A stretch of 62,985 nt of DNA, the filler included, from Chiloscyllium plagiosum (lineage: Eukaryota): the NCBI RefSeq assembly GCF_004010195.1. It is 11 parts of 11 records of this genome, joined end to end, with 100 filler letters (N's around TTAATTAATTAA, not from the genome) between each part and the next. Parts side by side here need not be neighbours in the genome. Positions count along the whole stretch, not along the records: positions 1 to 29,436 come from NC_057746.1; 10 more parts are not named here. One strand, written 5' to 3'. The translations under genes and the position numbers were made by a program. Each line of letters begins with the position of its first letter. Position 1 is the first letter of the stretch. The notes beneath the pieces are model-generated. The model made no database searches and was not told the origin of the DNA. It worked only from the letters and a program-made list of their open reading frames with translations. This document shows, piece after piece, positions 3,749-60,188 of the stretch.

Positions 3749-3933
3749 AGTTGATACTCTGCGTCTGGAATTTGAGTTCAGGAAATGATCAAAGTTCAAG
3801 GTGAACAGTTAATTCGATTTTATTGTTGTTCTACTGTATGTTCCAGTGTGCAAACATTAATTGATCCCCACCCTCAACCCCAGAGTGTTTTATTCCAAGT
3901 CCCTGGTTAGAATAGGGACAGCAAGTTCCCAGA

Positions 3934-3985
3934 ATGTTGCTGATCCTTTTCTCCATTTCCCTGTGTTTTTCCTGGGTCTCTCCCG
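3934..3985 (+). CDS. MHC class I exon 1, signal peptide [17 protein letters not shown]
   Basis: ATG, hydrophobic 17-mer, then G|GTAAGT donor; lies downstream of promoter-like motifs. Confidence 0.8.
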
Positions 3986-6900
3986 GTAAGTACAGAATTC
4001 AGCTTTCCATTCTCTCTCTCTCTTCTCCAGCTCAGGGCGAAGACAGGAACTCTCCTGGGACTTCACAGGAATGTAAATGTCAGTCGGTTTCTGTCAGGAA
4101 TTAATGTCACAATTGTACTAGTGAAGAGCTGAGGGGCTAATTTCCTTTCATGTCTGTCTCACTCACTGTGTGTCTATGTTCTTTCTCTGACATTCTGTGT
4201 CTCAGTGTGCCACAATCTGTGTGTGTCGGGGGGAGGGGGGGGGGGGGTGCTGTGTATCCTTCTGCATGTATGTGTGTCGCCAGAGATGGTAGTGCCTGAT
4301 ATCGAAGATTCCTTTCTCTCTCCCTCTCTCTGGTTGCCCCTCTCTCTCTTTCTCTCTCTCTGGTTTTCTTGCTCTCTTTTTTTTCTGTGCTCCTGCCTCT
4401 TTCCGTGGACATGTTTCACTGTCTGTTTAATTGTTCCTTTCTGTCTAACAGTCTTGCCCTTTCTCTCTCCCTGCAGTTTTTGCACTGAGGGAAACAGCTT
4501 TTTCTCTCTCTCCTTCTCCTTCCCCACAGACCTAAAATGAGCTGTTGGTTTCTGACGCCCAGTTGTCACATGAGTCTGAAAGTGCCTGATGTTGTCTGCT
4601 CCTCGTTAGTAGCCTCAGTATTTGGATAGGAGACTGTCTGTCTTAAAATACCAGGGGCAGTCATCTTTGAGGCTCCTGTGGCCAGGTCAGAAGGTCTAGG
4701 TCTGAGTCCCACCCTGGAGATTTGTCATAACAAGTTGATTCAAAATGCTTACAGCAGCCTGTTTAATGCTTGAACTGAAAGAATGGTCGACAATAAAAAG
4801 GCAGCTTCCAGGAGCATTTTCTTTCCGATCAGAAATCTTCCGATGTATAGACTCATAGAGATGTACAGCATGGAAGCAGACCCTTCGGTCACACCCATCC
4901 ATGTCGACCAGATATCCCAAACCCAATCTAGTCTCACCTGCCAGCACCTGGCCCCATCCCTATTTTCACTCAATGAAGATTCACTGATCCAAATCTTCAG
5001 GTCTTTGAATTATCAGATTTGGGATCTAGATTGGGAGGCGCAAATCAGGATTCTGGGATTATCTGGGATTCTCCACAACTGTTCGTAACATGGACTTCAG
5101 AATCAGAGACTTGGGTTAGGTATATACACTCTAGAAACACGCTAGGCCAGGTAAAGTTACCCAGTTTAATGCCTGGGTCTACCAGTGATCAGCTAATCAT
5201 TACAACCAGACACCCTAAGCCTGGGACGATATCCTGAGGAACCTGTACAGAGGTGTCCTGGAGCTGAGATAACTGAACTCCAAAAACTACAACCGTCTTC
5301 CTGTGTGCTCCAACCAGCGAAGAGTTTTCCCTTGATACCCATTGATTCCAGTTTTGCTAGAACTTCTTGATGCCATATTTGTCAAATGCAGGATAAAGGG
5401 CTGTGGAAGCAGGCAGGAAACTGGAGGTGAGACCAGGATGAGATCAGCCATGATCATGTTAAATGGCGGAGTGAGCTCGAAGGGCTGAATTGCCCACTGC
5501 CACTCCTAATTCGGGCCAGTCACTCTTTCCTCACCTCTTGAACTGAAAGAAGTAGCTGAAAAAGCAGAAAAGGGTCGGGTTACAGAAGTCGCCACCAGTC
5601 AGGTCAATGCATTCAGTATTGACCCTGATCAGAGGATGTGTGCCAGTGTCTTCGGGGCTTTTTCAGCTGCCGTTAGAACTATGGTAGGAATTTGGTGGTG
5701 TGGATACACTATCCAGATTTCAGCACTCACACCATCATTCTGATTTCACACCGTCACTACGTGGGTGAGTTTTCCTTGATCAGGTGGTAGTGTTTGTAAG
5801 TGTTTATTCAGATGTCCCTTGAATCTGTTAATCTTTATTTTCTACAGACAGGAATGCATTTACAGTTATGTATTTAGCTACCTCTGGCACTGCTGACTTA
5901 CCCGAGTATGTTGGAGTGGGAATGATCAATGGAGTTCCAGTGGCCTATTATGACAGCGGTACCCCTCAGATAATCTCCCGTCAGCAGTGGATGACAGATG
6001 CCTTTGATGAAGAATACTGGGAATATCTCACAAATCGAGGGAATAAACATTGTGCCATTGCAAAAGAGAACTTGAAGATGATAATGAAGAATACAAACCA
6101 GACATCCGGTAAGAGCAACAATACACATACTTCCACTTACCCTTTCTTTATTGTTTCTTCTTCACCCAAAGCTCTGTTTCCATGTGATGCAGTGATTTGT
6201 GGTAGAGTGTAGTCCTTTCGATTTAGCCTACTATATTCACTGCTTGTGATGTGGTCTCCACACACTGGAGAGATCATGCACTCACAGGTGACCATTTTGC
6301 ACAGCATTTCTGTTCACTCTGTGACTCCAGCTTCCTGTCAGCTGATGTTTTATTGATCTACTGAGTTTCCACTCTGATCTTTCTGACCTCAGTCTCCACA
6401 ATAGACAAATGAACAAGGCCAGTGAGTGTGGAGACAGGGTCAAGGTCACAGAACAGATTACAAGTTGGCTTCAAGACAAAATAGAGAACGGGAGTAAACG
6501 ATACTTATTCAGAGCTGCAGAAGGTGGGAAGTCTTCAGACCTGGGACTACTGCTGTTCACAATTTACATCAATCCTTTGGACTTTGGAATCAAAACTTTT
6601 TTAAGTGCAAATGACATGAAATTGGAGGGAGTTGGCTGTGCTTTCTAGGAATTGGAAAGTTATTTATTTGTTAGTAGCTGCAGGTCTAGGTGGGGGGAGA
6701 AGAAAAGGAGATCTTGCCATATAAACACATTATTCACTAAAATCTGCATTTCAGCTTAGCAAAGCCATTGAACAGTGAACCAAGCACTAGGTTTTATATC
6801 TAAAGGAGCAGCATTAAAAATTAGAGAAATTATGCTAAATTTGTATTGATCACACACTGCAACTCTTGTTGCCATATTATGAAAAGGATAAAACATTGGG

Positions 6901-9900
6901 CACTGGAGATGGTGCTGACAGGGTGTATAACATGGGATATCTATCAGAATGCTGTGTTTTTCCAGCACCACATTTTTCAAATACATATCAGAAAAGAATT
7001 GAAAGTTGAGTCCATTCTACCTGAGAGGCAAAAAGGCCTCACGAGTGCATATTGGAGGTTTTAATAACTTTGGAAGATTTTGATTGAGTGGATGTGGAGA
7101 GAACATTTCCACTTTTGGGGAAAATCATTCAAAGCCTTAACGTAAGATAACCAGAAATACCCAACAGAGAATTTAAACTTTTACCCAAAGATTGGAGAAA
7201 ATGTATGGCTCGCCACCACAGGGAGTTATTAAAGTAAATAGTATTGTTACATTTAAAGAGAAGCTAGAGTATTTTGAAGGAAAGGCAATAGATGATCACA
7301 AAGGTAGGTTTGCAGCAAAGAGGATGGGAGGAACTCAGGTTGAGCATAAGCACTTGCAGGGACTGGTTTAACATGTTTCTGTGCCAGAAATCCTGTGTAA
7401 TCCTTCTGAACACTCAATTTCTGTTCCTTTACCCACCAACACTCCCTTTGGCTCTGCAACACCAACTCTTTTGTCATTTAACCTCTCCCCATTCCAGTCT
7501 GTCACTAATCTTCTCCGTTGTTCCATTTCCACTCTCACTTGCTCAAAACCTGTTATGTATTGAAAAACTTTCCCCGTCTGACAATGGTCATCAACCTGAA
7601 ATTCTTCCCCTGTCAGTGGATGCGAGCTGACTTATTATCTCTCAGCTGACTGCTGTGTTCAGTGAGTGCCAGGTGGGCATCCATCTGTAGTTACACTGCA
7701 ACCCATGACCCTTGGGTGTACATACAATGTATGGGCAATCCTGTCCACTGTATTACAGCATTCAATCAGGTAAACCAGGCTAATTCCCTCTTTGATGGGA
7801 TTTTTGTGTAACTGGCAAGGTCAACATTTGTTGCCTGTCCTGAATTTGACATGAACTGGGTGACTTGCTCAGCCTTTTCAGAGGCCAGTTAAGAGTCAAC
7901 CAGATTGCTGTAGGAGTCACATGCTGACAGACTTCCTGTTCTTAAGCACATGTAGTGAAGCAGATGGATAGATTTGATATTACAGTTGATGGTTTCACAG
8001 CTAACAAACCATATTCCTGATTTTGTTACGATCCAGGACAAAGCAGCCCACTTGACTACAGCCAAATCCACCTCTTTTGAAATTCACTCCTGTCACTACA
8101 CTGCACAATTCCCCACACAGTGTACCACCATACTGCAGAATGGCTACAGTGAGTACTATTTGCAAGATGCATTGCAGTAATCCACTCGGACTTCTTTAAC
8201 AAAGTCCTCAAACTAGCAAACTCCATTATCCAGAAAGACAAGTTGATGTTTGTTAACACCTTCAGCTTCACTTCCAAGTCACAGAGCATCCAAAGTTGTT
8301 GCAACCCTGTCCAATAACAGTGAATGGTTAATGATAACTGTAATACTGATAATGTTCACTTGGGTGCCTGTCACAGAGGAATGAATCTGTTTGCAGTTTA
8401 GGAGATATGAGTTGTCGAGAAGTGAAGGAATGCAGCTGTGCTAAGCTGGGAGAAAGAGGGAAAAATTACATATACTTAGGGCTTTTCATAACCTCAGGAC
8501 AGCTCATCTCCAGAGAATCACTGCAAGAATATAGGAAATACAGTAACCAACTTGAACACAGCAAGCTCCCATAGCAAAATGTGACAATGATCCCCACTTA
8601 TTATGATGTTGAATGAGGAGTAAATATTTGTCAATAAAGTGTGGCACTGGAAAAGGCACAGCAGGTCTGATGAAGGATTATGCTCGAAACGTCGACTCTT
8701 TTGCTCCTCAGATGCTGCCTGACCTGCTGTGCCTTTTCCAGCACCACACTTTGTTGACTCTGACTCCCCAGTCCTTACTATCTCCTAGTAAACATTAGTC
8801 AGCAGACTGAGGATAACTCCTCAATGTGTCATCAGAATGCCATGGAATCTTTTACATCTCTCATTAGAGAGAGAGAGAGAGCTGCTGGTCACCATACCTC
8901 AGGCAAGGAGACAGATTGAGGAGGAGAATCCTTCATGGTAACCTCAGCTGGTGTGGGAATTGAACTCATCTGTTGGTTTACTCTGCATTGAAAACTAGCC
9001 ATCCAGCCAGCAGAGCTGACCAATACCCTCAGGTTAAGCAATCACCAGTTCTGTCTTTCTGTGATGAGAGAGAGCAGCCTATGGTCCAGTTGGGCGATGG
9101 TGACTTCACCTTGGAGATGATGCTATATAATGTGAGACTGCTTCAGCAGATCTCTTATTTGCTTTGAAGTGATGTTGAGCCCTGATTCTATGCTAAGACT
9201 AAATCTCTGTATGGGTATATGAATAGGAAGGGATTAGGGGAGTACGGGCTAAATCCTGGCAAACAGGACTAGACTAATTTAGGATATCTGGTCGGCATGG
9301 ATGAGTTGGTTGAAAAGGATCTTTTTCTGTGCTGTGCATCTCTATGACTGTGTCTCTATGAAGCCAGAAATCACACAACACCAGGTTGTAGTCCAACAGG
9401 TTTATTTGAAATCACAAGCTTTCGGAGGGTAGCCCCATCATCAGGTGTAGTGAGAGAGAAGCATACAGACAAGAATCTGGGCAGGGGGATCAAAAGATCA
9501 TAAAAGTGGTGTGAATGGAGTGCCAAATAAGAAGTCGCTGCAGCTGACCAAGGGTGTTAGACAGTGTGAGTAAAATGTCAACAGCTGAATAACAACTGAA
9601 ATCCGATTAAATGAGGCAGAGAGATAATTCCAAAACATTAAAAATACGGTGGTGCTGGAGACAACCCAAATGCCTGGAATAACATGGAATAAAAACGGAA
9701 GCTGCTGGAAAAGCCCAGCAGTATCTGTCTAGAAAAACCAGAAGAAGGGTCACCAGATCCAAGACATTAATTCTGATTTTCCTCCCTATATGAGAGGGAG
9801 TACAAGTTTGGCATTTCATTTGAAAGATGGACAGGCGTTGTGGAGTGTGGGGTGATGGTTGTATGACCATGAAGGGAGCAGAACGCAGGAATATTGTAGC

Positions 9901-12900
9901 AGAGAGGCTGGTGCAGTGATCCTATCTCGTGAGCTGATTGAACTTGCTTTATTGACTACACTCCCCTGGAGATGAGTTCCTCACATTGATTTCCTTGCTG
10001 ATCCTTTTTCATTGACAGTGCGGGTATTGCCAGGATGGCTTCATGTCCCGAGGGGGGGGAACAGGTTTTACCTCCTCCTGTACATTCTCAAAACTATGAT
10101 ATACTGCCCAAGTTCCAGAGAACTGCTTGGGTTTCACAAAATGAAGATATTCACAGACAATAGATTTCTTCCATGCAAGTGTTCCTTCAGTACTGTGTAC
10201 AAACTTGGTTTTACAGTAATAAATCCTGCTGTGAACGAATCAATAAAGAAATCTATTGTAATAATTAGCTAGTTTAATTTTACTAGTATAGCAATGCAGA
10301 GCCCACAGAGAAACCTATTACTGTATTACTGAGCGCACAGAGAAATCCATTACAAAATAAATATACTTTTCTAACGGTAGTACCTTTTGTTTACTGTTCA
10401 TTACTGACAGGAATTCACATTTTCCAATGGATAAGGAAAGTTGAAATAAATGATGACAGCTCCACTAATATCGCGATGCGATTTGGATTTGATGGAAAGG
10501 ACTTTATTAGTTTAGAGCCGGACAGAATGAGATGGGTCGCATCCAATCACTTTGCAGTGAAGACTGCAGAGAAATGGAATTCAGATGAATCCTGGAACAA
10601 ATATTGGAAATGGCAGTTGGAAATAGAACTTGTTGAGCGCTTAAAACTACGCTTACGTTTTGGAAAGGAATATCTCAAAAGGACAGGTATTTATTTCAGT
10701 TCTGATCTAACCTCACTGATCTATGAAACCGTTCTCCCATTACATTCAGTGTCTGTCTATTGTTTGTGGTTTCACCCTTTCCCATCACAGTTCAGCCTGA
10801 AGTGTTCATCTCCAGGAGGGAGCCCAATGGTCAGGACAAGCCGCTCACTCTCTCCTGCCTGGTCACTGGGTTTTATCCTGTAGACATCGAGGTGACCTGG
10901 CTAAGGAATGGAGAGGTCATGTCTGAGACCCAATCCTCGGGGATACGACCGAACCACGATGGGACCCATCAGATCCAGAAAGAGATTGAGATCAGTACTG
11001 GGGATGAGGATCAATACTCCTGTCACATTGAACACAGCAGCCTGGCAGAGGCCCAGCTCTATCAGTGGGGTAAGGAACTATAATCGATATTCATGTGTGA
11101 GGGAGAAAGAGAACAGGGAGAGTGTGTGTAACTAAAAGGATCGAATGAATGAGATATACATAGTTACAGGCAAGAGAAACTGAGACTGTGCCGAAGAAAC
11201 AGATTCAAAAAAAGGAATAAGACAGAAAGAAATGTGGAAAAGTAAAATGAAATACGTCACTAAGCAAGCTATATATTTTTACATTTTGTAATTTTTCTGA
11301 TGGTTTGGCTGCAGGGATTTTTGAATGAATTCAGATTGCCATGTAGCTGTTTGTGTACTGGCAACAGACCACCGGTTAATTCTACACATCACTTAAACTT
11401 TCTGAGAAACTGAATTTACCAGAGATTTGGTGAAGACATTTTGTCAAAATGATGTTTGTCACAAATCACATTTAGTTGGAGGCACCATAATTCCTTGACA
11501 CCATACAAAAGCATATTAAATATTACAATGGCCTCAATCATTCATGCAAAGCATGAGCTGGTATGTAAGTGGGGACCCAATAGTTAGAGACAATCGAGCA
11601 AGGTTTGTTTGGCATCTCCAGTAACTGGTGAGAGTTTTATCTTCCAGCTAGTATACTGTAACATAAAATAAATTTACCAAATGAGTAACTGGTTAACTAA
11701 GTATACAAATACATTTAGATGAAGATAGCAGCACTGATAGTGTGTCATAATTGTAATAAAATGACAGGTCGTGCAGTGTACTGCAATTTTAAAGAACCAT
11801 AACTATGGTAAGTGTCTGCAATTTAAACATGTTTGTATCTGAGTTACCAAGGTAGATTCAGAATTGCAGACATGAGAGTCAGCAAGAGGGTGAGGTACCA
11901 GTTACATTCCTTAGGTTAAGTAGAACTTTAAAGTTGGCCGACTGACTGGGAACAGGAGAGTGTGACTGTGAGTCAGGCAGATGCTGGGATTCAGGATGGA
12001 GTGGTAGGGGAGACTTGGCCAGTAATTGGGAAGCATTTGCCACCAGAGCAATGAGATTAAAGACTATAAGGTGGATGTATGACTAATTGTAGCTCTGTGG
12101 TTCAGGATCCCGTTTGGTGGTGGGGACAGGGTGTGTAGAAAGAATTTTGGTAATAATGGGATATGACGATTCTCTGCAACTGTGAGTGAGAGTTCCCCAA
12201 TGTTTGTGTTCCATTGCCTGGTGCCTTATTAAGGATGTCTTTTCATATCTAGAGATGAACTTGGACTGGAGGTCAAGGGCAGCAAGGGATTCAGTTGTTG
12301 TGGTCCATGCAGAGCCAATGATAGGAATAGAACTCAGAATGAATTTTCACTGACTGAGTTTGAGGAGTTGGCGTGTGCTAAAATGCAAAACCTCAAAGAT
12401 ATTTAGAACAAAGAACAAAGAAAATTTACAACCCAGGAACAGGCCCTCCAGCCCTCCAAGCCTGAGCCGATCCAAATCCACTGTCTAAACCTGTCGCCCA
12501 ATTCCTAAGCATCTGTATCCCTCTGCTCCCCACCTACTCATGCATCTGTCCAGATGCATCTTAAATGAATCTACTGTGCCTGCCTCTACCACCTCTGCTG
12601 GCAATGTTTTCCAAATACCCACCACTCTCTGTGTGAAGTAATTGTCACGTATGCATATGTGGTTGGGGGAGACAGCTGGGACTGAGGGAGAAAGTTGTTA
12701 GACCGATACAATCAATATACTATGCACAAAAAATTAAAAAGTTACATGTCTCATAGTTCCTATTTAGCAGTTACATTCAAATCTAATAAGAAAACTATGT
12801 ATACCTGGATTGTTATCTCAGCCATGTGTTAACCTGAATAGGATCAAGTGGATTAAATGTTAGGCTCAAAAGATAGTTTAAAGAAAAGGGGCCTTGATTC

Positions 12901-21900: not shown

Positions 21901-24900
21901 AAAGTATTTGCTCAATTCCCCTCAATCAATTTGTGCCTCATGCCTTCAGCATTTCTCTAGATGGAAGTGGTCATGGGTTTGGAAGGTGCTGTCTAAGGAT
22001 CTTTGGTGAAGATGAGATCCCTGATTTGGGCTGTTAATCTGGCCAAATCAGGGAGCCCTAGCTGACAGATAAAAGCAAGAGTGGGTCCCATACTTCCCGC
22101 GGGAGCCTGTGCCCCACAACCTGAACCGCCTCCGAAACTTTAATTTTGTCTCATTTAGGGATGTAACAAGGAAAGCCCTGTATAGACTGCTGCTGCACAC
22201 CGTCCACCTCTTCTCCCTCATCCACCGTCCGGACACGCCTTGGCGTGCCCATTTGCCACCAGGCGGCGGGGATCCCCAGTGGAGGGCTCTCTATGCGGGA
22301 GTCCTCCCCCTTTCTCTCGGGGATCTGGGGTGGAGGGTGCTGCACGCAGCAGTCCCCTGCAACCGCAGATTGCGGTGGTTCACGGACTCCCAGCCCAACT
22401 GCTTGTTCTGTGGCGCCGTGGAGTCCGTGGACCACGTGTATATTGGGTGTGGGCGTTTGCACTCCATTTTTGATTTCCTTAAAAACCTTCTCCTCTGTTT
22501 TTGGCTGCACTTCAGTCCCACGCTCCTGATCTTTGGGCACCCGGTACGGAGGAAGGAGGGCAGGTCTGAAGACCTCCTCGTGGGCCTGCTCCTGGGCCTG
22601 GCCAAACTGGCCATCAACAGGTCCAGGCAGCGGGCCGTGGAGGGGGTCGTTAAGGCCGACTGCCTGCCCCTCTTCCGCGGTTACGTTAGAGCCCGGGTGT
22701 CCTTGGAGAAGGAGCACGCGGCGTCGACCAACACCCTGGAGTTGTCCAGGGAGAGGTGGGCGCCGCAGGGAGTGGAGTGCATCATTTCTCCCTCCAATTC
22801 TATTTTGATTTAGTCCCTACCCTCCCCTTCACTGTTTTGATCACACAGCACTGCCCTTTGATGTGAAGGGCAGTGTTTGTCACTGGCCACCTGGGTGTTT
22901 TCCTATCTTCCTGGTGGTGGAACTTGAATAAAGATTCGTGCACTTTGTGTCTTTCACTGTGTCTCACACCTGCACACACACACACACACATACACACCAT
23001 GGGTGCTGGGGAAATAAAATAAGAAAAAAAAATATAAACAGGAGTGGGACATGCCCTGACGTACTCATTAAAAAAAAACAAGAGTGACAGATAAAAGCAC
23101 TCTGATCTGGTTCTGAGGGAGCTGGAATAATGTCAAGGACTTTCCACGTGTAAGTAAAGGATGACTTGGTGATAGGAAAACAGCTTCTGTGGAATTATTT
23201 CAGTAACTTTATGTCATCTACCTTGTTGTGAATGCTGTGTGCAGTTACTTGACAGTGCAATTTAATATGGCCCAGAGTTGGGAAGTTAGAAAACACAGTC
23301 CTCAGGCAGAGCAATCGCATTGTCATATTGACCAAACCAGATAGGAATGTTCAGAAGGACCCAAAAAGTATCAAGACTGAATGAGTGTAATGCCCATAAA
23401 CTGTGAGATACTGAGAAAGAACTACATGGACTATTGTACAGAATTACAATTACATCACAGAAATGGTTGAAGCCTCTTGCCCTTGATCAGTGGTGATGAG
23501 AGTAAGACCAGAATAAACTATAAGATGCTGCAAAAACACAACCTGTGAAGTTCAGATATTGCTGTTGGTTGGGGGGTGTTAATGGTGGAAGAAATGGTTA
23601 AATAACATCCATGTAAAAGTTGAGAAAAACTTGGGGGCACTGTGGTATTATAATAATGCATATGATGATGATGATATAGAACATGATATCGTGTTTATTT
23701 AATCAGTTATATGCACAAGATGGTGAAAAAATGATGGAATAGTTTTTACTTGTAAGAGACATATGTCCAGTTACTCTTTTTTTACACAACAGTGTAAATA
23801 AAAGGCTTTGCAAAAACCTATTAGAGACAGACAGCAGTCATTCTTAAGTAAATGGGGAACCATTACCAGCCATAGATTTCAAAGAAGAGACTGGGGCAGT
23901 TATCCTCCCATGTCCTGAATAGATTTTTGTTGTTGTTGTGTCACCATAGTTGTATCAGACTACAGGGGCTGCTCTCTCATTAGAAAGAAGTGACTGGTGG
24001 TGATTCAGCCTGAGGGCCACCTGACCTCAGGCAAGGGAAGAAGTTGAGAAGGAGAGTCCTTTATCGTAACCTCATACCATGATGGGAATCGAACCCTTGT
24101 TATTGGCGTCACACTGCTCTGTAAAGCAGCAAGCCAGCCAACTGAGCTAAACCAATTCCCCTTGAATAGAACAATGAGCCAGAAGCCTTTAGCAATACAG
24201 CCAAAGCTGGCCTTTATTTCGGTGGGAATTAGGTGTTTGTCAATAGCTGAGGTTTGAGAATGATCAATCGTGCCACCTCTTGGTAATGTAATCCTGGGAG
24301 CAATGACAACATACAAACAGGCTAATTCAGAACTGAATGGGTTCAGGAACAGAGGAATAATCATGATCTTATTCAAATGTGTTTCAGAAGTCCCAAGAAA
24401 CAGCGCTGGACACTCACATCTTGAAATGTTAGGATTCGTGATCATTCCACTGGCTATTATAGTTGGAATAATCGGATTAGTAATGTGGAAAAGGACTCAG
24501 AGAGGTGAGTATCAGAGGAAATAGAATATCAAACCAGGCAGCCTCGACCATCACTAATCATTTTCCCTAACGAGACAGCATCCTTACTGTGCTCTGGGAC
24601 TCTGGTGGCTTGACCTATTTATATGGGTAGTCTAGTTCAGTTTCTGTTCTGTTGTAACCTCTAGGATGCCACAGAGGTTTAGAAGGAGGGCCTGTTTCCA
24701 CACTGTAATGTAATGTAATCTAATCTAAAAAAAAAATATGGGTAGTCTAGTTCAGTTTCTGTTCTGTTGTAACCTCTAGGATGCCACAGAGGTTTAGAAG
24801 GTGAGTCCTTCATGGTAACCTAAGCTGGAAGGTGAATTGAACCCATGCTGTTGGCATCACTCTGCATTGCACTGTATTCTGGATGTGGTCTCACCAAATC

Positions 24901-26630
24901 CTTGTGTAAATAAAGCACAATCTCTTTACTTTTGTATTCAATTCCCTTTGCCATGAGCAATAATATTCTGCTGGCTTTCCAAAATTCCCACATTGGCTGA
25001 GATTACCATGAAGTACTCTCATTCTCGACCTCTCCAGTTGCCTAAGGTATGGTGACCCTCAGGTTAAGTCACGACTTGTTGTCTTTCTCTCTCTCTCTCT
25101 TATGAGAAAGCAGTCCTATGGTCCAGTCAGTACAACTAACCTCTTGTAATTTGCGCACAAGGATGCCCAGATCCCTCTGCATGTCTGTAATCTCCCACCA
25201 TTTAGATAATATGCTACATTTATGCTATTTACGACAAAATGGACAATATTTTAATTATACACTATTTTCCACATCTTTGCCCAATCACCTAACCTATCAA
25301 TATCCTTTTGTCACCTCCTTGCAGCTCCTTCACAATCTTCTTTCCCATCTGTCTTTGTGTCATCAGCAAATTTAGTAACCATACCTTCCATCCCTTCATC
25401 GAAATAACTGGTACAGATTGCAAAATGTTGAAGTCCCAAAACTGAACTTTGTGGCTCATCAGTTGTTACTTCTTGCCAGCCAGAGGATGACCCAGTTATG
25501 CATACTCTCTATTTCCTGTTTGCTAGCTCATCTTCTCTCCATGACAACATGCTCCCTCCACCAATGTGAGTGTAGGAATGAGTAGGAAAGTGAAGCTGAG
25601 GCAGAAGATCAGACATGATTGTATTGAAGAGTACAACAGGCTATTTCAGCCACTGAGCTCAAGTTGCTCTAATTTCTATCTCACTTACCGAAATAAGCTG
25701 AGCATTTCCAGCAATTTTGGTTTGAGTTTATTTATCTCTTAGGTTTATTGTTTCCCATTGTAGTCTCTCTTACTTTTGCACAGGCCCCAGCACATATTAA
25801 AAGCGGGGTGAAAAAAATAGTAGTGCAAGACACATGAAAGCCATAGTAATGTACAGCATGAAAACAGACCATTTGGTCCAACTCGTCCATACCAATCAAA
25901 TATCTCAACCTAGTCTAGTCCCATTTGCCAGCACTTGGCCCATATCCCTCCAAACCCTTCCTATTCATAAACCCATCCAAATGCCTTTTAAATGTTGCAA
26001 TTGTACCAGCTTCCACCACATCCTCTGGCAGCTCATTCCATACATACACCACCCTCTGTGTGAAAAAGTTGCCCCTTAGGTCCCTTTTATATCTTTCCCG
26101 TCTCACCCTAACCTAAAAAGACTTTGTCTATTTCCCCTATCCATGCCCCTCATGATTTTATAAGACTCTATAAGGTCACCCCTCAGCCTCCGACGCTCCA
26201 AAGAAAACAGTCCCAACCTACTCAATCTCTCCATATAGTTCAAATCCTCCAACCCTGGCAACATCCTTGGATCTACATGCATACATTGACAGTTAAAAGT
26301 CCTAATTCTTACCCACAGATTCACCTGGAAATCTACAGCAACAATGCCATGGGAAGTCTGGAGAAGAACATCAAACAGGTGAGATTCCAAATTTTTCTAA
26401 ACACTGATTAAATCACTAATCTATTTCTATCCACATTTACACTTTTTCCAAATGTTGCACAGTTGACGTGTTTAATGTTTTTATTAGTTTCTACGCAACC
26501 ATTTCTGGAAACGGGACCCACTCTCCACCAACAGGAAGCCACGGATAATAAAGTGGAACTGGAGCTCATTGAATCCCACACATTACTCAAGGCAGAGCCT
26601 GTTCAGAGAGACTCAGAACCTGAAACCTGA
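3934..26630 (+). CDS. Nonclassical MHC class I heavy chain gene, 7 exons (3934-3985, 5848-6108, 10411-10686, 10791-11069, 24388-24504, 26319-26378, 26488-26630), about 395 aa
   Basis: All six introns are GT-AG and phase 1. The exons total 1188 nt and splice into one open frame: leader, alpha1, alpha2, alpha3, TM and two cytoplasmic exons. The last two exons are less certain than the first five. Confidence 0.9.
5848..6108 (+). CDS. MHC class I alpha1 exon
   Basis: Acceptor tttctacag, donor gtaag, 261 nt. Motifs [24 protein letters not shown] and the N86 glycan site NQTS. Confidence 0.95.
6400..7400 (+). mobile_element. Old degenerate CR1-like LINE fragment
   Basis: Remnants [11 protein letters not shown] and ANDMKL of the RT motifs, with many stops. 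Confidence 0.65.
10411..10686 (+). CDS. MHC class I alpha2 exon (no cysteines)
   Basis: GIHIFQW...[11 protein letters not shown]...AVKTAEKW...GKEYLKRT; 276 nt with AG/GT boundaries. Confidence 0.95.
10791..11069 (+). CDS. MHC class I alpha3 (C1-set Ig) exon
   Basis: [17 protein letters not shown]...RPNHDGT...[10 protein letters not shown]; preceded by a 104-bp intron. Confidence 0.97.
15610..16965 (-). mobile_element. CR1 LINE 3' part (RT domain), spans an N gap
   Basis: [22 protein letters not shown]; [19 protein letters not shown]; FFTQRVV.VWN.LP. Confidence 0.93.
17608..18060 (+). mobile_element. CR1 LINE 3' end
   Basis: SRTRGH..KV...NFF.Q.VV.VWN.LP...[10 protein letters not shown] plus 3'UTR. 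Confidence 0.88.
18400..20620 (+). mobile_element. Fragmented Gypsy-type LTR retrotransposon remnant
   Basis: Protease-like FKISTDIG; integrase-like MDLFHFQG and D/VSGPQFVN; interrupted by other repeats. Confidence 0.55.
21526..21846 (-). mobile_element. HE1-type SINE
   Basis: Full head-to-tail match to the other copies. Confidence 0.88.
22007..23202 (+). mobile_element. Probable solo LTR (TG...CA) interrupted by the Tx1-like element
   Basis: TGAAGATGAGATCC...CCAAAT..ATAAAA before the insert; AGTAAA...TTATTTCA after it. Confidence 0.45.
22084..23030 (+). mobile_element. 5'-truncated L1/Tx1-like non-LTR retrotransposon (ORF2 C-terminus, 3'UTR, A tail)
   Basis: ORF 22109-22813 with WRVLH and the CCHC knuckle [17 protein letters not shown]; AATAAA, (CA)n and poly(A). 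Confidence 0.88.
23960..24155 (-). mobile_element. Second tRNA-derived SINE family (related pieces at about 8870-9110, 24800-24870, 24990-25140 and 52500-52590)
   Basis: Boxes TTAGCTCAGTTGG and GGTTCGATTCCC; recurrent CCTCAGGTTAA..CACCAGT core. Confidence 0.6.
24388..24504 (+). CDS. MHC class I connecting peptide/transmembrane exon
   Basis: tttcag|..[25 protein letters not shown]|gtgagt; hydrophobic span followed by a basic stop-transfer segment, phase 1-1. Confidence 0.85.
25840..26270 (-). mobile_element. CR1 LINE 3' end
   Basis: [17 protein letters not shown]; [10 protein letters not shown]. Confidence 0.88.
26319..26378 (+). CDS. Putative cytoplasmic exon ([20 protein letters not shown])
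   Basis: Acceptor cttacccacag, donor G|gtgaga, 60 nt, open in phase 1. Confidence 0.65.
26488..26630 (+). CDS. Putative terminal cytoplasmic exon with ESHTLL dileucine motif
   Basis: Acceptor ttttattag; open in phase 1 to TGA at 26628-26630; AATAAA at 26694-26699. Confidence 0.6.
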
Positions 26631-29436: not shown

Positions 29437-29536
29437 NNNNNNNNNNNNNNNNNNNNNNNNNNNNNNNNNNNNNNNNNNNNTTAATTAATTAANNNNNNNN
29501 NNNNNNNNNNNNNNNNNNNNNNNNNNNNNNNNNNNN
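29437..29536. other. Artificial contig linker (also 32451-32550, 37985-38084, 40961-41060, 43434-43533, 49653-49752, 53577-53676, 55375-55474, 57675-57774, 59761-59860)
   Basis: 44 N + TTAATTAATTAA (stops in all six frames) + 44 N, ten identical copies. Confidence 0.98.
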
Positions 29537-35737: not shown

Positions 35738-36065
35738 GCCGTGAAAACTCTCAGCCAAGCTGACCCTGCTGCCCCCCTCCTCGGAGCAGGTCAATGCCAA
35801 GGGCACTGCCACCTTGGTGTGCCTTGCCAATCACTTCTATCCCGATGAGCTGGAGGTGCAGTGGAAGAAGGATGGTGCAGTCATTTCGGACGGGGTTCAG
35901 ACCAGCAACTACCTGCGAGCTTCGGACAGCACCTACAGTGTCAGCAGCCTGCTGACTCTCTCTGGGTCTGACTGGGAGTCCAACGCTCGCTTCTCCTGTG
36001 CCCTCACCCACGTGACCCTCCCCTCTCCCCTCAGCAAGAGCATCAGGAGATCAGAATGTGTGTAG
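35738..36065 (+). pseudogene. IGKC: Ig kappa-type (shark NS4-like) light chain constant exon with a 1-nt deletion near the 5' end
   Basis: ATLVCLANHFYPDELEVQWKKDG...FSCALTHVTL...RSECV*. The spliced frame reads cag cca agc TGA (35761-35763), whereas the paralog reads gag ccc aag ctg. Confidence 0.88.
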
Positions 36066-41294: not shown

Positions 41295-41960
41295 TGATAG
41301 AGCTGGGCCTCTGCCAGGCTGCTGTGTTCAATGTGACAGGAGTATTGATCCTCATCCCCAGCATTGATCTCAATCTCTTTCTGGATCTGATCGGTCCCAT
41401 CGTGGTTTGGTCGAACCCCCGAGGATTGGGTCTCAGACATGACCTCTCCATTCCTTAGCCAGGTCACCTCGATGTCTGCAGGATCAAACCCAGTGTCCAG
41501 ACAGGAGAGAGTGAGTGGCTTGTCCTGACCATTGGGCTCCCTCCTGGAGATGAACACTTCAGGCTGAACTGTGATGGGAAAGGGTGAAAACACAAACAAT
41601 AGACAGACACTGAATGGAATGGGAGAGCGGTTTCATAGATCAGTGAGGTTAGATCAAAACGTGGAGCAAAACTGAAATACATACCTTTCCTTGTGAAATA
41701 TTCCTTTCCAGCTTCCAGGTACCTCTTTAAATGCTCAACAAAGATTCCATGCAGCTATGTTTCCCAGTAATTGTTCCAGGATTCATCAGAATCCCATTAC
41801 TCTTTTGTCTTCACTGCAAAGTGATTGGTTGCGATCCATCTCATTCTGTCTGGGTCGAAACTGATATAATCCTTTCCATTGGCTCCAAATCTCACCGATC
41901 CCTTCACAGAGCCACCATCACTGATCTCAACAGTAATAAACCATTGAAAGATGTGAATTC
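41295..41960 (-). pseudogene. MHC class I pseudogene of the same lineage (alpha2 41685-41960; alpha3 41295-41568, cut by a gap)
   Basis: alpha2 has in-frame stops TAA (41797-41799) and TAG (41755-41757); alpha3 is nearly identical to 10791-11069. Confidence 0.93.
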
Positions 41961-49652: not shown

Positions 49653-50189
49653 NNNNNNNNNNNNNNNNNNNNNNNNNNNNNNNNNNNNNNNNNNNNTTAA
49701 TTAATTAANNNNNNNNNNNNNNNNNNNNNNNNNNNNNNNNNNNNNNNNNNNNATCATGTACTTGGTTTCAGTCCACTTTTGCTAAGTCACTGCACAGTTC
49801 AGTAAAATATTTCATTCCCAAATGAAATTTTTTACACTTGCTCCATTGTTCTCCATTTCCATCCATACTCTCAATCTCCCTGAGTTCTGATCACTGTCAC
49901 TGAAATGCTCCCTTCCAGCTGCCCATATTCATTCCATAAACAATGGTCCAAAACTATCCCTTCTCTTTCACCATCACCCTCTCAGGGGCAATTAGGAAGG
50001 GGCAATGAATGCTGGACCTGGCAGTGACTCTCATATCCCAAGAAGCAATTTAAACAATACCTGTTCTTTTGTCGGGGTTTATTCTGTATTGACAACAAAT
50101 GTTCAATAAGATTGTATTGCCAGTGAATATACTGAGAGTCAAAATCCATTTGTTTGGCAGGGATTAAAATTGTTTCTCTTGTCTTTCAG

Positions 50190-50517
50190 GCCGTGAGAAC
50201 TCTGAGCCCAAGCTGACCCTGCTGCCCCCCTCCCCAGAGCAGGTCAATGCCAAGGGCACTGCCACCCTGGTGTGCCTTGCCAATCACTTCTATCCCGATG
50301 AGCTGGAGGTGCAGTGGAAGAAGGACGGTGCAGTCATTTCGGACGGGGTTCAGACCAGCAACTACCTGCGAGCTTCGGACAGCGCCTACAGTGTCAGCAG
50401 CCTGCTGACCCTCTCTGGGTCTGACTGGGAGTCCAACGCTTGCTTCTCCTGTGCCCTCACCCATGTGACCCTCCCGTCTCCCTCAGAAAGAGCATTAGGA
50501 GATCAGAATGTGTGTAG
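50190..50517 (+). pseudogene. IGKC: Ig kappa constant exon with a 1-nt deletion near the 3' end
   Basis: In frame from RENSEPKLTLLPPS through both Ig cysteines. The frameshift at about 50480 removes the terminal SECV and extends the ORF to 50602. It also has an R>C change (NACFSC). Confidence 0.88.
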
Positions 50518-50851
50518 AGTGTTTGAGACAGTCCACAGAGGAGACACAACTTTAATTAGAACAGGGCTGAGCTGGCAGGACCAAGGTCATTGTCAGCACT
50601 GAATTTAAACTCTCTTCCTTCTCAGGACTGCTCAGAGATACGTCTGAGGTTTGGATGTTGAAGTAGGTTACTGCGACAATGTTGAGAGACTTTACGCTAT
50701 GTCAAACCTCATGCTGTCCTTGTCCGGGGAGTGTTTGATGGGGAAGTGTTGACTGTATGCCGAGTAAAATCTCTTGAAGTTGCTGGAGACTGTCAGTTGT
50801 ACAAAACAATGTGACCCTCAGAAGTCTCTGCTTCAGTAAACCAGACCTTTT

Positions 50852-55474: not shown

Positions 55475-55738
55475 ACAAACAATGACAAGCCAGTGAATCC
55501 CAGTATCGACAAGAGCACCGAGGTGATGGCGGAGAGTGACAACACCTCCTTCTTCATGTACAGCCTGTTATCCATTACAGCGGAAGAGTGGGCCAGCGCT
55601 ATTTCTTACTCCTGTGTGGTGGGACATGAAGCGATTCCATTGAAGATCATCAACAGAACAGTCGACAAATCCAGCGGTAAACCAATTTTCATAAACATTT
55701 CACTTGCACTGATGGACACTGTTAATTCATGTCAATAA
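55475..55738 (+). CDS. IGHM: IgM CH4 3' part plus secretory tailpiece (5'-truncated by the contig edge)
   Basis: [57 protein letters not shown]. Tail glycan site and penultimate Cys present; internal donor G|GTAAAC at 55677; AATAAA at 55734-55739. Confidence 0.93.
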
Positions 55739-58700: not shown

Positions 58701-59129
58701 ACTCCCATCCTTTTCCATCTTTCCCTGTCTCACCTGAAGGTACTAAATCCTGAAATATTCAATAGCCACTCCTGCCCCACTCTCAATATGTCTCCATGTT
58801 AACAACCGCATCATTTCCTCATTTATGCCGGTAATTGATCTGCCTTGTTCAACAGACTCTTTCATTAAAACGAATACCATCCAACGTTGCTCTCTCCCTT
58901 CTGATTTAACCGGCCTATAGTTTCTATGCCTCCTTGACTCCCTTGCTGTGTCCTCTAATTTTAGTCCTTCACATTCCCCAATGATCTTTCTGTGTGGATC
59001 CCAGCTTCTCCAGCACTCTGCACAATTATGATTCTTGTATCCATTAACCACAAGAAACCTTAATATATGAGAACTGACTGTATTTGTTATGAAATTCGTC
59101 GGATAATGTATGCGATGTGTTTCCTAAAG

Positions 59130-59441
59130 GTACAGCTCCTCTCCCACCAACCCTTCTCCTAACTGTGAGCTCCAGTGAAGACATCGCAAGCAGCAAGTTT
59201 GCAACCGTCGTCTGTTCAATCATCGAGTTCCGTCCGAAGTCAATCTCCGTGAGTTGGTTGAAAAATGGCAGACCCTTGGATTCTGGCTTCTTCACGTCTC
59301 CCGTGTGTGAGGCGAACGGGAACTTCTCGGTGACGAGTCGGCTGATGGTCCCTTATGGTGAATGGTACAACAGCGCGGTCTATCCCTGCCAGGTCACTCA
59401 TAGAGAGAACACTCAAAGTAAAAACATCACCGCACTCCAGG
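59130..59441 (+). CDS. IGHM: IgM CH2 exon
   Basis: [37 protein letters not shown]...[16 protein letters not shown]...CQVTH; 312 nt with AG/GT boundaries, phase 1. Confidence 0.88.
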
Positions 59442-60188
59442 GTAAGAGACACAGACTGAGAGAGCTACAAATCACTCTGAACTCGGATGTGAATCAAACA
59501 CACTAATTTATCAGGCGTAGTAAACAGCACGGTACAGCTTCTCATTTCCCAATATGCCATGTGTCTCTTATTTCAGTTTGAGTGTTACATTAGCATAGCT
59601 CATAATTCAACATTTTGGCAAGTCAGAAAAGTATGTTTCCTCTCTTTGATGATAGTTATATAGACAGTGAGCTTTGTTAAATAGTTTGTTGCCTGACCAT
59701 GCAGAGAGAGGAATTCAGAGTGCTGAATCCTTGCCTGGTAATGGCTTCAAGGATAAGTTTNNNNNNNNNNNNNNNNNNNNNNNNNNNNNNNNNNNNNNNN
59801 NNNNTTAATTAATTAANNNNNNNNNNNNNNNNNNNNNNNNNNNNNNNNNNNNNNNNNNNNAACCTCCTCCCCTTTCCCTGACACTGAGTCCAGTCACTTC
59901 ACATTTAACCCGATCACACTGACACTGCTCCAAATGAGCAATGCTGCTCTGATTCTCCCTGCCCAGGGACTGCCCTCTCCCCTGTTTCAGTCCAGAGAGA
60001 TCTTTGTTCATGTCCCGAACTCCTTTTCCCATCGTGTCGCCAGTGCCAGGAATCAGCAGTGAATAATCCCATTTCCCCATTCCCAGGACCAGCAGATCCC
60101 AACACAGTCAGGATGGGAATGAAGCTGTGCTGGTAGCTGGGGGTGGGTGTGTGATAATTCCCCCGTTTTACTGATTCCCCTGACTGTA

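Follow-up and report, generated by a model that had tools for sequence, protein, structure and literature searches.

The bridge between C101 and C164 of the alpha2 domain is ancestral according to the available text of PMC8236899, being common to class I alpha2 and class II beta1. This raises the question of how a class I gene of the shark Chiloscyllium plagiosum, in which both cysteines are missing, should be understood: as a failing copy, or as a member of a functional lineage, and in the latter case which lineage it is and what the loss means for the groove.

Gene structure and the missing alpha2 cysteines

The window, which is the whole stretch of 62,985 nucleotides that was analysed, consists of 11 contigs with artificial N44-TTAATTAATTAA-N44 spacers between them, the first at 29437-29536. 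Since the contigs are unrelated and the spacers artificial, adjacency across a spacer carries no meaning. The intact class I gene is the sole gene on the contig at 1-29436. Small contigs carry immunoglobulin constant exons (35745-36065, 50168-50602, 55475-55738 and 59093-59506): two near-identical light-chain-like C exons, a heavy-chain C domain exon, and the terminal exon of a heavy chain, which we take to be IgNAR-like and whose secretory tail closes with Cys-Gln. A biological meaning for these exons, or for the pseudogene described below, as neighbours of the class I gene was rejected, since they lie on separate contigs.

Seven exons on the plus strand (3934 to 26630) join into a frame of 395 aa, the product of which shows no difference from RefSeq XP_043533813.1 (P0003 among the sequences compared), and they follow the class I heavy-chain plan of leader, alpha1, alpha2, alpha3 (Ig C1), transmembrane and cytoplasmic exons in phase 1. 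Exon 1 (3934-3985) encodes the leader peptide (17 codons plus one nucleotide) and RNA-type contigs show it joined at GT..AG to exon 2. Exon 2 (5848-6108), the splicing of which is also seen in such contigs, encodes an alpha1 domain with Val7, Tyr59, Arg66, His70, a lone Cys71, Asn84 and the N86 glycan sequon, in HLA numbers transferred by motif anchoring on the HLA-A2 row of the PMC10751288 supplement. Exon 3 (10411-10686), with AG/GT flanks, an open frame and joints in RNA-type contigs, encodes an alpha2 domain with Arg99, Lys100, Val101, Thr143, Lys146, Trp147, Gln159, Leu164, Arg167 and Arg171. It is followed by exon 4 (10791-11069), for an alpha3 Ig C1 domain with the normal Cys pair and with R234, P235 and Q242 kept, and by exon 5 (24388-24504), for the connecting peptide and transmembrane helix, which agrees with the RefSeq model and lies beyond the read-covered stretch. 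The cytoplasmic exon 6 (26319-26378) and the coding part of exon 7 (26488-26630), with the cytoplasmic tail up to the stop codon, come from the rebuilt gene model.

The first-pass annotation described an alpha2 exon that lacks cysteine, with V101 and L164, and both translation and a HMMER comparison with class I chains from the PDB bear this out, the latter placing Val (codon 10440-10442) on HLA C101 and Leu (10629-10631) on C164. The residues that it listed as retained (H93, Q96, D119, G120, R234, P235 and the N86 sequon) are all present in XP_043533813.1. The ectodomain cysteines of this protein are the alpha3 pair and the single one in the alpha1 helix, and with one platform cysteine a substitute disulfide within the platform is ruled out. 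A replacement bond in alpha1-alpha2 can likewise be rejected for most of the family described below, where 97 of 110 members have no cysteine or one in these domains. Cys71 itself (exon 5848-6108), which has no platform partner, is invariant in 21/21 ortholog sequences, while paralogs mostly have Ser.

The leader (3934-3985) is identical at 17/17 residues to the nurse-shark UDA leader and near-identical to the leaders of further UDA-like proteins from sharks, even though the ectodomains of this gene and of UDA or UDA-like proteins are only about 30-45% alike. The leaders of UAA, UBA, UGA-like proteins and dogfish UCA are unlike it. The match suggests that the leader exon may have a common origin with that of UDA, or may have been exchanged by conversion within the class Ib cluster.

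Distribution of the trait

A search with the alpha2 exon gave 54 family proteins among 103 candidates, every one from a shark, and a profile search brought the named members to 13 shark species, which take in galeomorphs and also Heptranchias and Pristiophorus. Neither search named a family member in rays or chimaeras, and ray class I proteins were present in the same database; since the searching was word-based, members there may have been missed. Altogether, 434 proteins were reduced to 365 distinct near-complete ectodomains (partial sequences dropped, isoforms kept), and 110 of these, with an alpha2 identity of at least 55% to this gene, were taken as the family, the other 255 lying at 41% or less.

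Residue 101 is Val in 101 family ectodomains, Ile in four, Ala in four and Leu in one, and in no case Cys; at residue 164, 92 members have Cys or a hydrophobic side chain. Gly100, present in 242/255 of the other class I ectodomains, is found in 0/110 family members, so that Gly100 and Cys101 have been lost together family-wide, with position 101 hydrophobic and position 164 mostly so. Cys101 is carried by 253 of the 255 others and both cysteines by 252, dogfish UCA (P0182) being the only non-family ectodomain that lacks the two. Residues that contact beta2-microglobulin (b2m) are near-invariant in the family, with Q96, G120 and D122 each present in 110/110. The proposal of the first-pass annotation that the missing cysteines reflect a lineage trait, and not the decay of one copy, stands on the absence of Cys101 from all 110 ectodomains and on the single clade that the family forms. 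In the favoured reading, which is probable as a whole, the alpha2 disulfide was lost in the ancestor of this shark-wide multigene family.

Some sequences depart from the common patterns. Eight of the 110 family ectodomains (e.g., P0016, P0038, P0043 and P0047) carry Cys164 without Cys101, an unpaired residue either kept or regained. Outside the family, the class I sequences P0250 (teleost) and P0321 have Cys101 with Tyr at 164. A ray query labelled UHA, in the part of the PMC10751288 supplement that was available, seemingly lacks both alpha2 cysteines when read by eye, and if that reading is right it would be a second loss among cartilaginous fish.

Groove conservation and a possible fixed ligand

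This gene has orthologs in four galeomorph orders, 11 species in all and near one per species, and these share 72-87 of 87 alpha1 residues with it, whereas example paralogs share only 35-59. The ortholog clade, with ten sequences, has moderate support (96/66), and nine of them group at 100/95. When each species is represented by a single sequence, no variation is seen at 32 of 37 groove positions, versus 84/141 other alpha1-alpha2 positions (Fisher p=0.002, a descriptive value, as the species are related; the 37 positions are a set of our own), while in the other 89 family domains just 4/37 are invariant. The A end of the groove carries Val7, Arg66, His70, Arg99, Gln159, Glu163, Arg167 and Arg171; at the F end, Thr143, Lys146 and Trp147 are retained among Trp97, Phe116, Trp152, Tyr155 and Trp156.

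The conserved peptide-terminus positions of class Ia molecules are 7, 59, 84, 123, 143, 146, 147, 159 and 171. Four of these are changed here (Val7, Asn84, Gln159 and Arg171) and five are kept (Tyr59, Phe123, Thr143, Lys146 and Trp147); assignment to classical class Ia (UAA) was rejected on the changes at 7/84/159/171 together with the absence of C101-C164. Net groove charge is +4, a modest difference from the +1.8 of the rest of the family and the +1 to +3 of UAA. Mean Kyte-Doolittle hydropathy, over the same 37 positions, is -0.29 for this gene, +0.34, -0.05 and -0.45 for three UAA sequences, and +0.17 for the rest of the family.

In the mechanism that we propose, the pocket for the peptide N-terminus would have been rebuilt, with Tyr7, Tyr159, Trp167 and Tyr171 exchanged for Val, Gln, Arg and Arg, and with Arg66 and Arg99 close by. 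Such an A end would not anchor a free amino-terminus, and would more likely hold an acidic group. The protein likely displays one fixed ligand instead of varied peptides, and in its likely role it would be recognised, as a non-polymorphic ligand, by innate-like T cells or NK-type receptors. The conserved groove fits one fixed, possibly acidic ligand, and not a flexible, promiscuous groove. A bolder reading, which we offer as speculation that could well be wrong, is that this is an unrecognised fixed locus within a family that turns over fast, a shark MR1-like presenter whose A end, with Arg66, Arg99, Arg167 and Arg171, would bind one anionic or phosphorylated ligand for invariant T cells. Were this true, the ligand would be a metabolite, a phospholipid head group or an acid-capped peptide, and a class I platform would be working without a bond thought to be essential. 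What may be new, in any case, is the ortholog group, near one per species, with its invariant groove and basic end.

Likely folding without the bond

Structure prediction, one of the checks that the first-pass annotation had proposed, gave a normal class I platform (AlphaFold2, a method that favours known folds; pLDDT 84-94 in alpha1-alpha2, 55-82 in alpha3, mean 69.9), and the best Foldseek match of the model was the shark UAA class I structure 6LUP (TM 0.81 by target). The predicted platform fold, a beta sheet under two helices, appears normal, and the model is silent on its stability. The available text of PMC8236899 describes the C101-C164 bridge as stabilising a region of the platform that no Ig domain underpins, and the class I bridge as lifted where the beta strand is interrupted, an interruption that depends on Gly100. 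In human HLA-A2, C101S reportedly impairs both stability and function (Warburton 1994, as cited in the available part of PMC2900293), so that stable folding of the present protein is not guaranteed.

The ancestor of the family would have lost the alpha2 disulfide, and where the covalent staple once was, Val101 could pack against Leu164 in a small hydrophobic core; judged from the residues at these positions, the hydrophobic pair likely replaces the bond. Loss of Gly100 may have restored a regular beta strand, leaving the alpha2 helix shifted and not loose. Pairing with b2m would proceed through the kept contact residues, from which we infer that the product likely folds with b2m.

The first-pass annotation had also envisaged an unusually flexible groove, and this found no support: residue 101 is a small aliphatic one in 110/110 family members, 164 is hydrophobic or Cys in 92/110, and the groove is near-invariant in 11 species. 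A stronger form of the idea is that the groove without its staple is floppy or open, and that the protein acts with nothing bound, or else as a dimer that is free of b2m or joined through Cys71, in the manner of a stress ligand or chaperone. The lost bond does normally steady the platform where Ig support is missing (PMC8236899), its loss destabilises HLA-A2 (PMC2900293), and the Cys71 that is invariant among orthologs lies close to Cys67 of HLA-B27, which forms dimers (PMC9133507; the three sources as far as available). Against these points, the inward positions of the groove vary less than other positions of the domain, pointing to a ligand, the b2m-contact residues are retained in nearly all members, and most paralogs have Ser at 71. 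We regard a floppy or dimeric molecule as improbable, and prefer a stable, b2m-paired platform that would hold a single ligand.

Phylogeny and the name of the lineage

In a maximum likelihood ectodomain tree of 74 rows, of which 42 were family rows picked by hand, the family forms one clade (support 100/99) that is sister to dogfish UCA (99/94); a phylogeny was one of the checks that the first-pass annotation had proposed. UAA/UBA, UDA, UGA-like and UFA-like rows all fall outside the family clade, and membership of UAA, UBA, UDA, UFA or UGA was rejected because these form separate clades; the anchors P0275 (UBA) and P0178 (UDA) match supplement queries by eye, and the UFA and UGA rows resemble the corresponding queries without being those sequences. 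An alpha1-alpha2 tree from which columns 100, 101 and 164 were removed still joined the family to UCA (SH-aLRT 95). In an alpha3-only tree, which has few columns, UCA was not joined to the family. UCA is a long branch. Orthology with dogfish UCA (AF515705) was rejected, as it is sister to the family and not nested in it, with identities of 21/87 in alpha1 and 34/92 in alpha2.

Supplemental file 10 of PMC10751288, as far as available, contains UAA, UBA, UDA, UFA and UGA queries that all have C101 and C164, and a dogfish UCA query with Val/Val. It also holds a nurse-shark query, 'Gcirratum_UCA_NODE_26056', with the Val101/Leu164 of the present gene, to which it is identical by eye count at 65/92 alpha2 (~71%) and 83/93 alpha3 positions, and its alpha1 domain resembles those of the family members P0015 and P0012. 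With so near a relative already in a published query set, the lineage has almost certainly been described before, as the first-pass annotation had allowed; the gene nests with relatives of this query, next to UCA. Novelty, which that annotation would give up if the gene nested in a described lineage known to lack these cysteines, is largely removed. The available part of the supplement gave no match to a 'UEA' label or to the accession of this gene, and its white-shark table calls the genes 'MHC-Ib' only.

PMC10751288, in its available text, describes UEA as a multicopy lineage in an MHC-linked class Ib cluster that also contains UDA and lies near b2m/brd2, and the review PMC12562908, in the part available, gives the expanded shark class Ib families as two, UBA and UEA. 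XP_043533813.1 lies on a contig of 35,007,441, the same size as is recorded for C. plagiosum UBA-like and UAA-like genes, and white shark class I genes show the same agreement; shared contig sizes fit MHC linkage of this gene. UEA is reportedly, in the work of Almeida and colleagues from 2021, confined to sharks, absent from rays and chimaeras and distantly related to dogfish UCA, and is said there to have a groove more hydrophobic than that of UAA and to comprise three sublineages. The family shares the traits of an expanded shark multigene family, a lack of ray and chimaera matches and a distant kinship to dogfish UCA. The groove hydropathy of the present gene, no higher than in UAA, speaks against the name. 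By sequence comparison, we infer that the query labelled UCA is UEA under a working name, and we consider it very likely that the family is the published UEA lineage.

Two other assignments deserve mention. The family could be UCA itself, the counterpart of dogfish UCA in galeomorphs and other sharks, with UEA and UCA two names for one lineage: the matching nurse-shark query does bear a UCA label, and dogfish UCA is the sister sequence, with Val101, a residue other than Gly at 100 and no Cys164. That low identity to dogfish UCA, set against alpha2 identities of at least 55% within the family, an unrelated dogfish leader (5/17) and the separation of the two in the alpha3-only tree make this unlikely. 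Unlikelier still is an undescribed shark class I lineage apart from published UEA. The lack of a supplement query labelled UEA and the purely generic gene names in RefSeq would permit it, but the authors' own query set includes a near family member, only UBA and UEA are named as expanded in the available part of PMC12562908 and the family is not UBA, and its distribution agrees with the shark-only range reported for UEA. Under the UEA or the UCA name alike, the lineage is one already described.

No printed statement of a missing alpha2 disulfide in shark class I was found in the literature searched, which lay outside the primary UEA and UDA papers; this cannot be taken to mean that the feature is unpublished, and the text or supplements of Almeida et al. 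2021 may well state it.

Expression, selection and the second copy

Four sequencing runs were compared over 3900-11150, three of them giving contig sets that were typed as RNA by guess. Contigs of X1, X2 and X4 skip introns at GT..AG and hence are spliced, which in three of the four runs supplies the transcript support that the first-pass annotation had proposed as a check. The leader-alpha1 joint is seen in X1 and X2, X4 having the same skip with one differing letter; the alpha1-alpha2 joint in X1, X2 and X4; and the alpha2-alpha3 joint in X1 and X2 (2/4 runs). The single-cell run X21, the sole run recorded as RNA, of which about 2% was read, left alpha2 uncovered and showed no exon joint. 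An X1 contig has zero mismatches over alpha1 and alpha2. The X2 and X4 contigs, which are from related sharks, depart from the gene in alpha1 and alpha2 by 9 distinct substitutions, all of them synonymous and at third positions. The gene is intact, spliced from leader to alpha1, alpha2 and alpha3, and under purifying selection.

The second copy, on a 2.4-kb contig, has an alpha2 exon of the same family (41685-41960, minus strand) with Val101/Phe164 by translation, but with two in-frame stops (41797-41799 and 41755-41757), and is therefore a pseudogene; its alpha3 exon (41295-41568, minus strand) is truncated where the assembly has a gap. At the nucleotide level it matches the intact gene at 199/276 positions (72%) in alpha2, 99/104 in the short intron and 261/272 (96%) in alpha3. 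The first-pass annotation had used this paralog as proof of a lineage trait: the Val/Phe pair is confirmed, yet a pseudogene on a separate contig cannot carry that weight, which falls on the family survey. As an observation in its own right, the short intron and alpha3 are about 95% alike (10687-11069 against 41295-41684), in contrast to 72% in alpha2, and this suggests that alpha3 may have been homogenised recently between old groove types.

That the intact gene is itself a decaying copy, or its missing cysteines an assembly error, can be dismissed as a negligible prospect: the other copy is a pseudogene and the assembly is fragmented, but the 395-aa frame is open with canonical splice sites, spliced transcripts match without mismatch, relatives differ only synonymously and orthologs are present in 11 species. 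The absence of Cys101 throughout the family, against its presence in nearly all other class I ectodomains, together with the mismatch-free RNA-type contig, speaks against chance or sequencing error.

Comparison with known systems

Taken as a whole, the favoured reading is of a nonclassical class I molecule, likely UEA, with an ancestral loss of the bond, likely folding with b2m and displaying one fixed ligand, and we hold it to be probable. The lineage is very probably published and cysteine-less sequences of it are public, so the feature is real without defining a new kind of molecule. A large, transcribed and selected family that gave up the bond before the major groups of sharks diverged offers a natural experiment on class I folding, and could inform disulfide-independent folding and low-expression HLA alleles, while the single conserved ortholog with its invariant basic groove is the most tractable candidate in the family for a ligand search.

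The gene shares its exon and domain plan, b2m-contact motifs and predicted fold with UAA (6LUP), UBA, UDA, UFA and UGA, but these keep C101 and C164 and their alpha2 identity to it is 25-36%. Spiny dogfish UCA (AF515705 / Q8HWI9) also has no alpha2 cysteines (Val101, Val164) and no Gly100, and two of the three trees place it next to the family as its sister; it differs in its 24-37% alpha1/alpha2 identity, its other leader, its more hydrophobic groove and its lack of the N86 sequon. MR1 is non-polymorphic and conserved across species, and has a groove lined by aromatic residues and arginines, with the alpha2 disulfide kept. The likeness of the present gene to MR1 would be one of working only, in its conservation across species and its aromatic and arginine-lined groove; it differs in having no alpha2 disulfide, and there is no sign of orthology. 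The nearest system is UEA, likewise an expanded shark class Ib multigene family, not found in rays or chimaeras here, in which peptide-anchor residues are not conserved and which is apparently on the MHC chromosome, and a query published by the same group (PMC10751288, in the available supplement) sits within the family and lacks both cysteines. Compared with UEA, this gene has a groove that is basic and aromatic and not notably hydrophobic, and it is kept near one copy per species, with no turnover.
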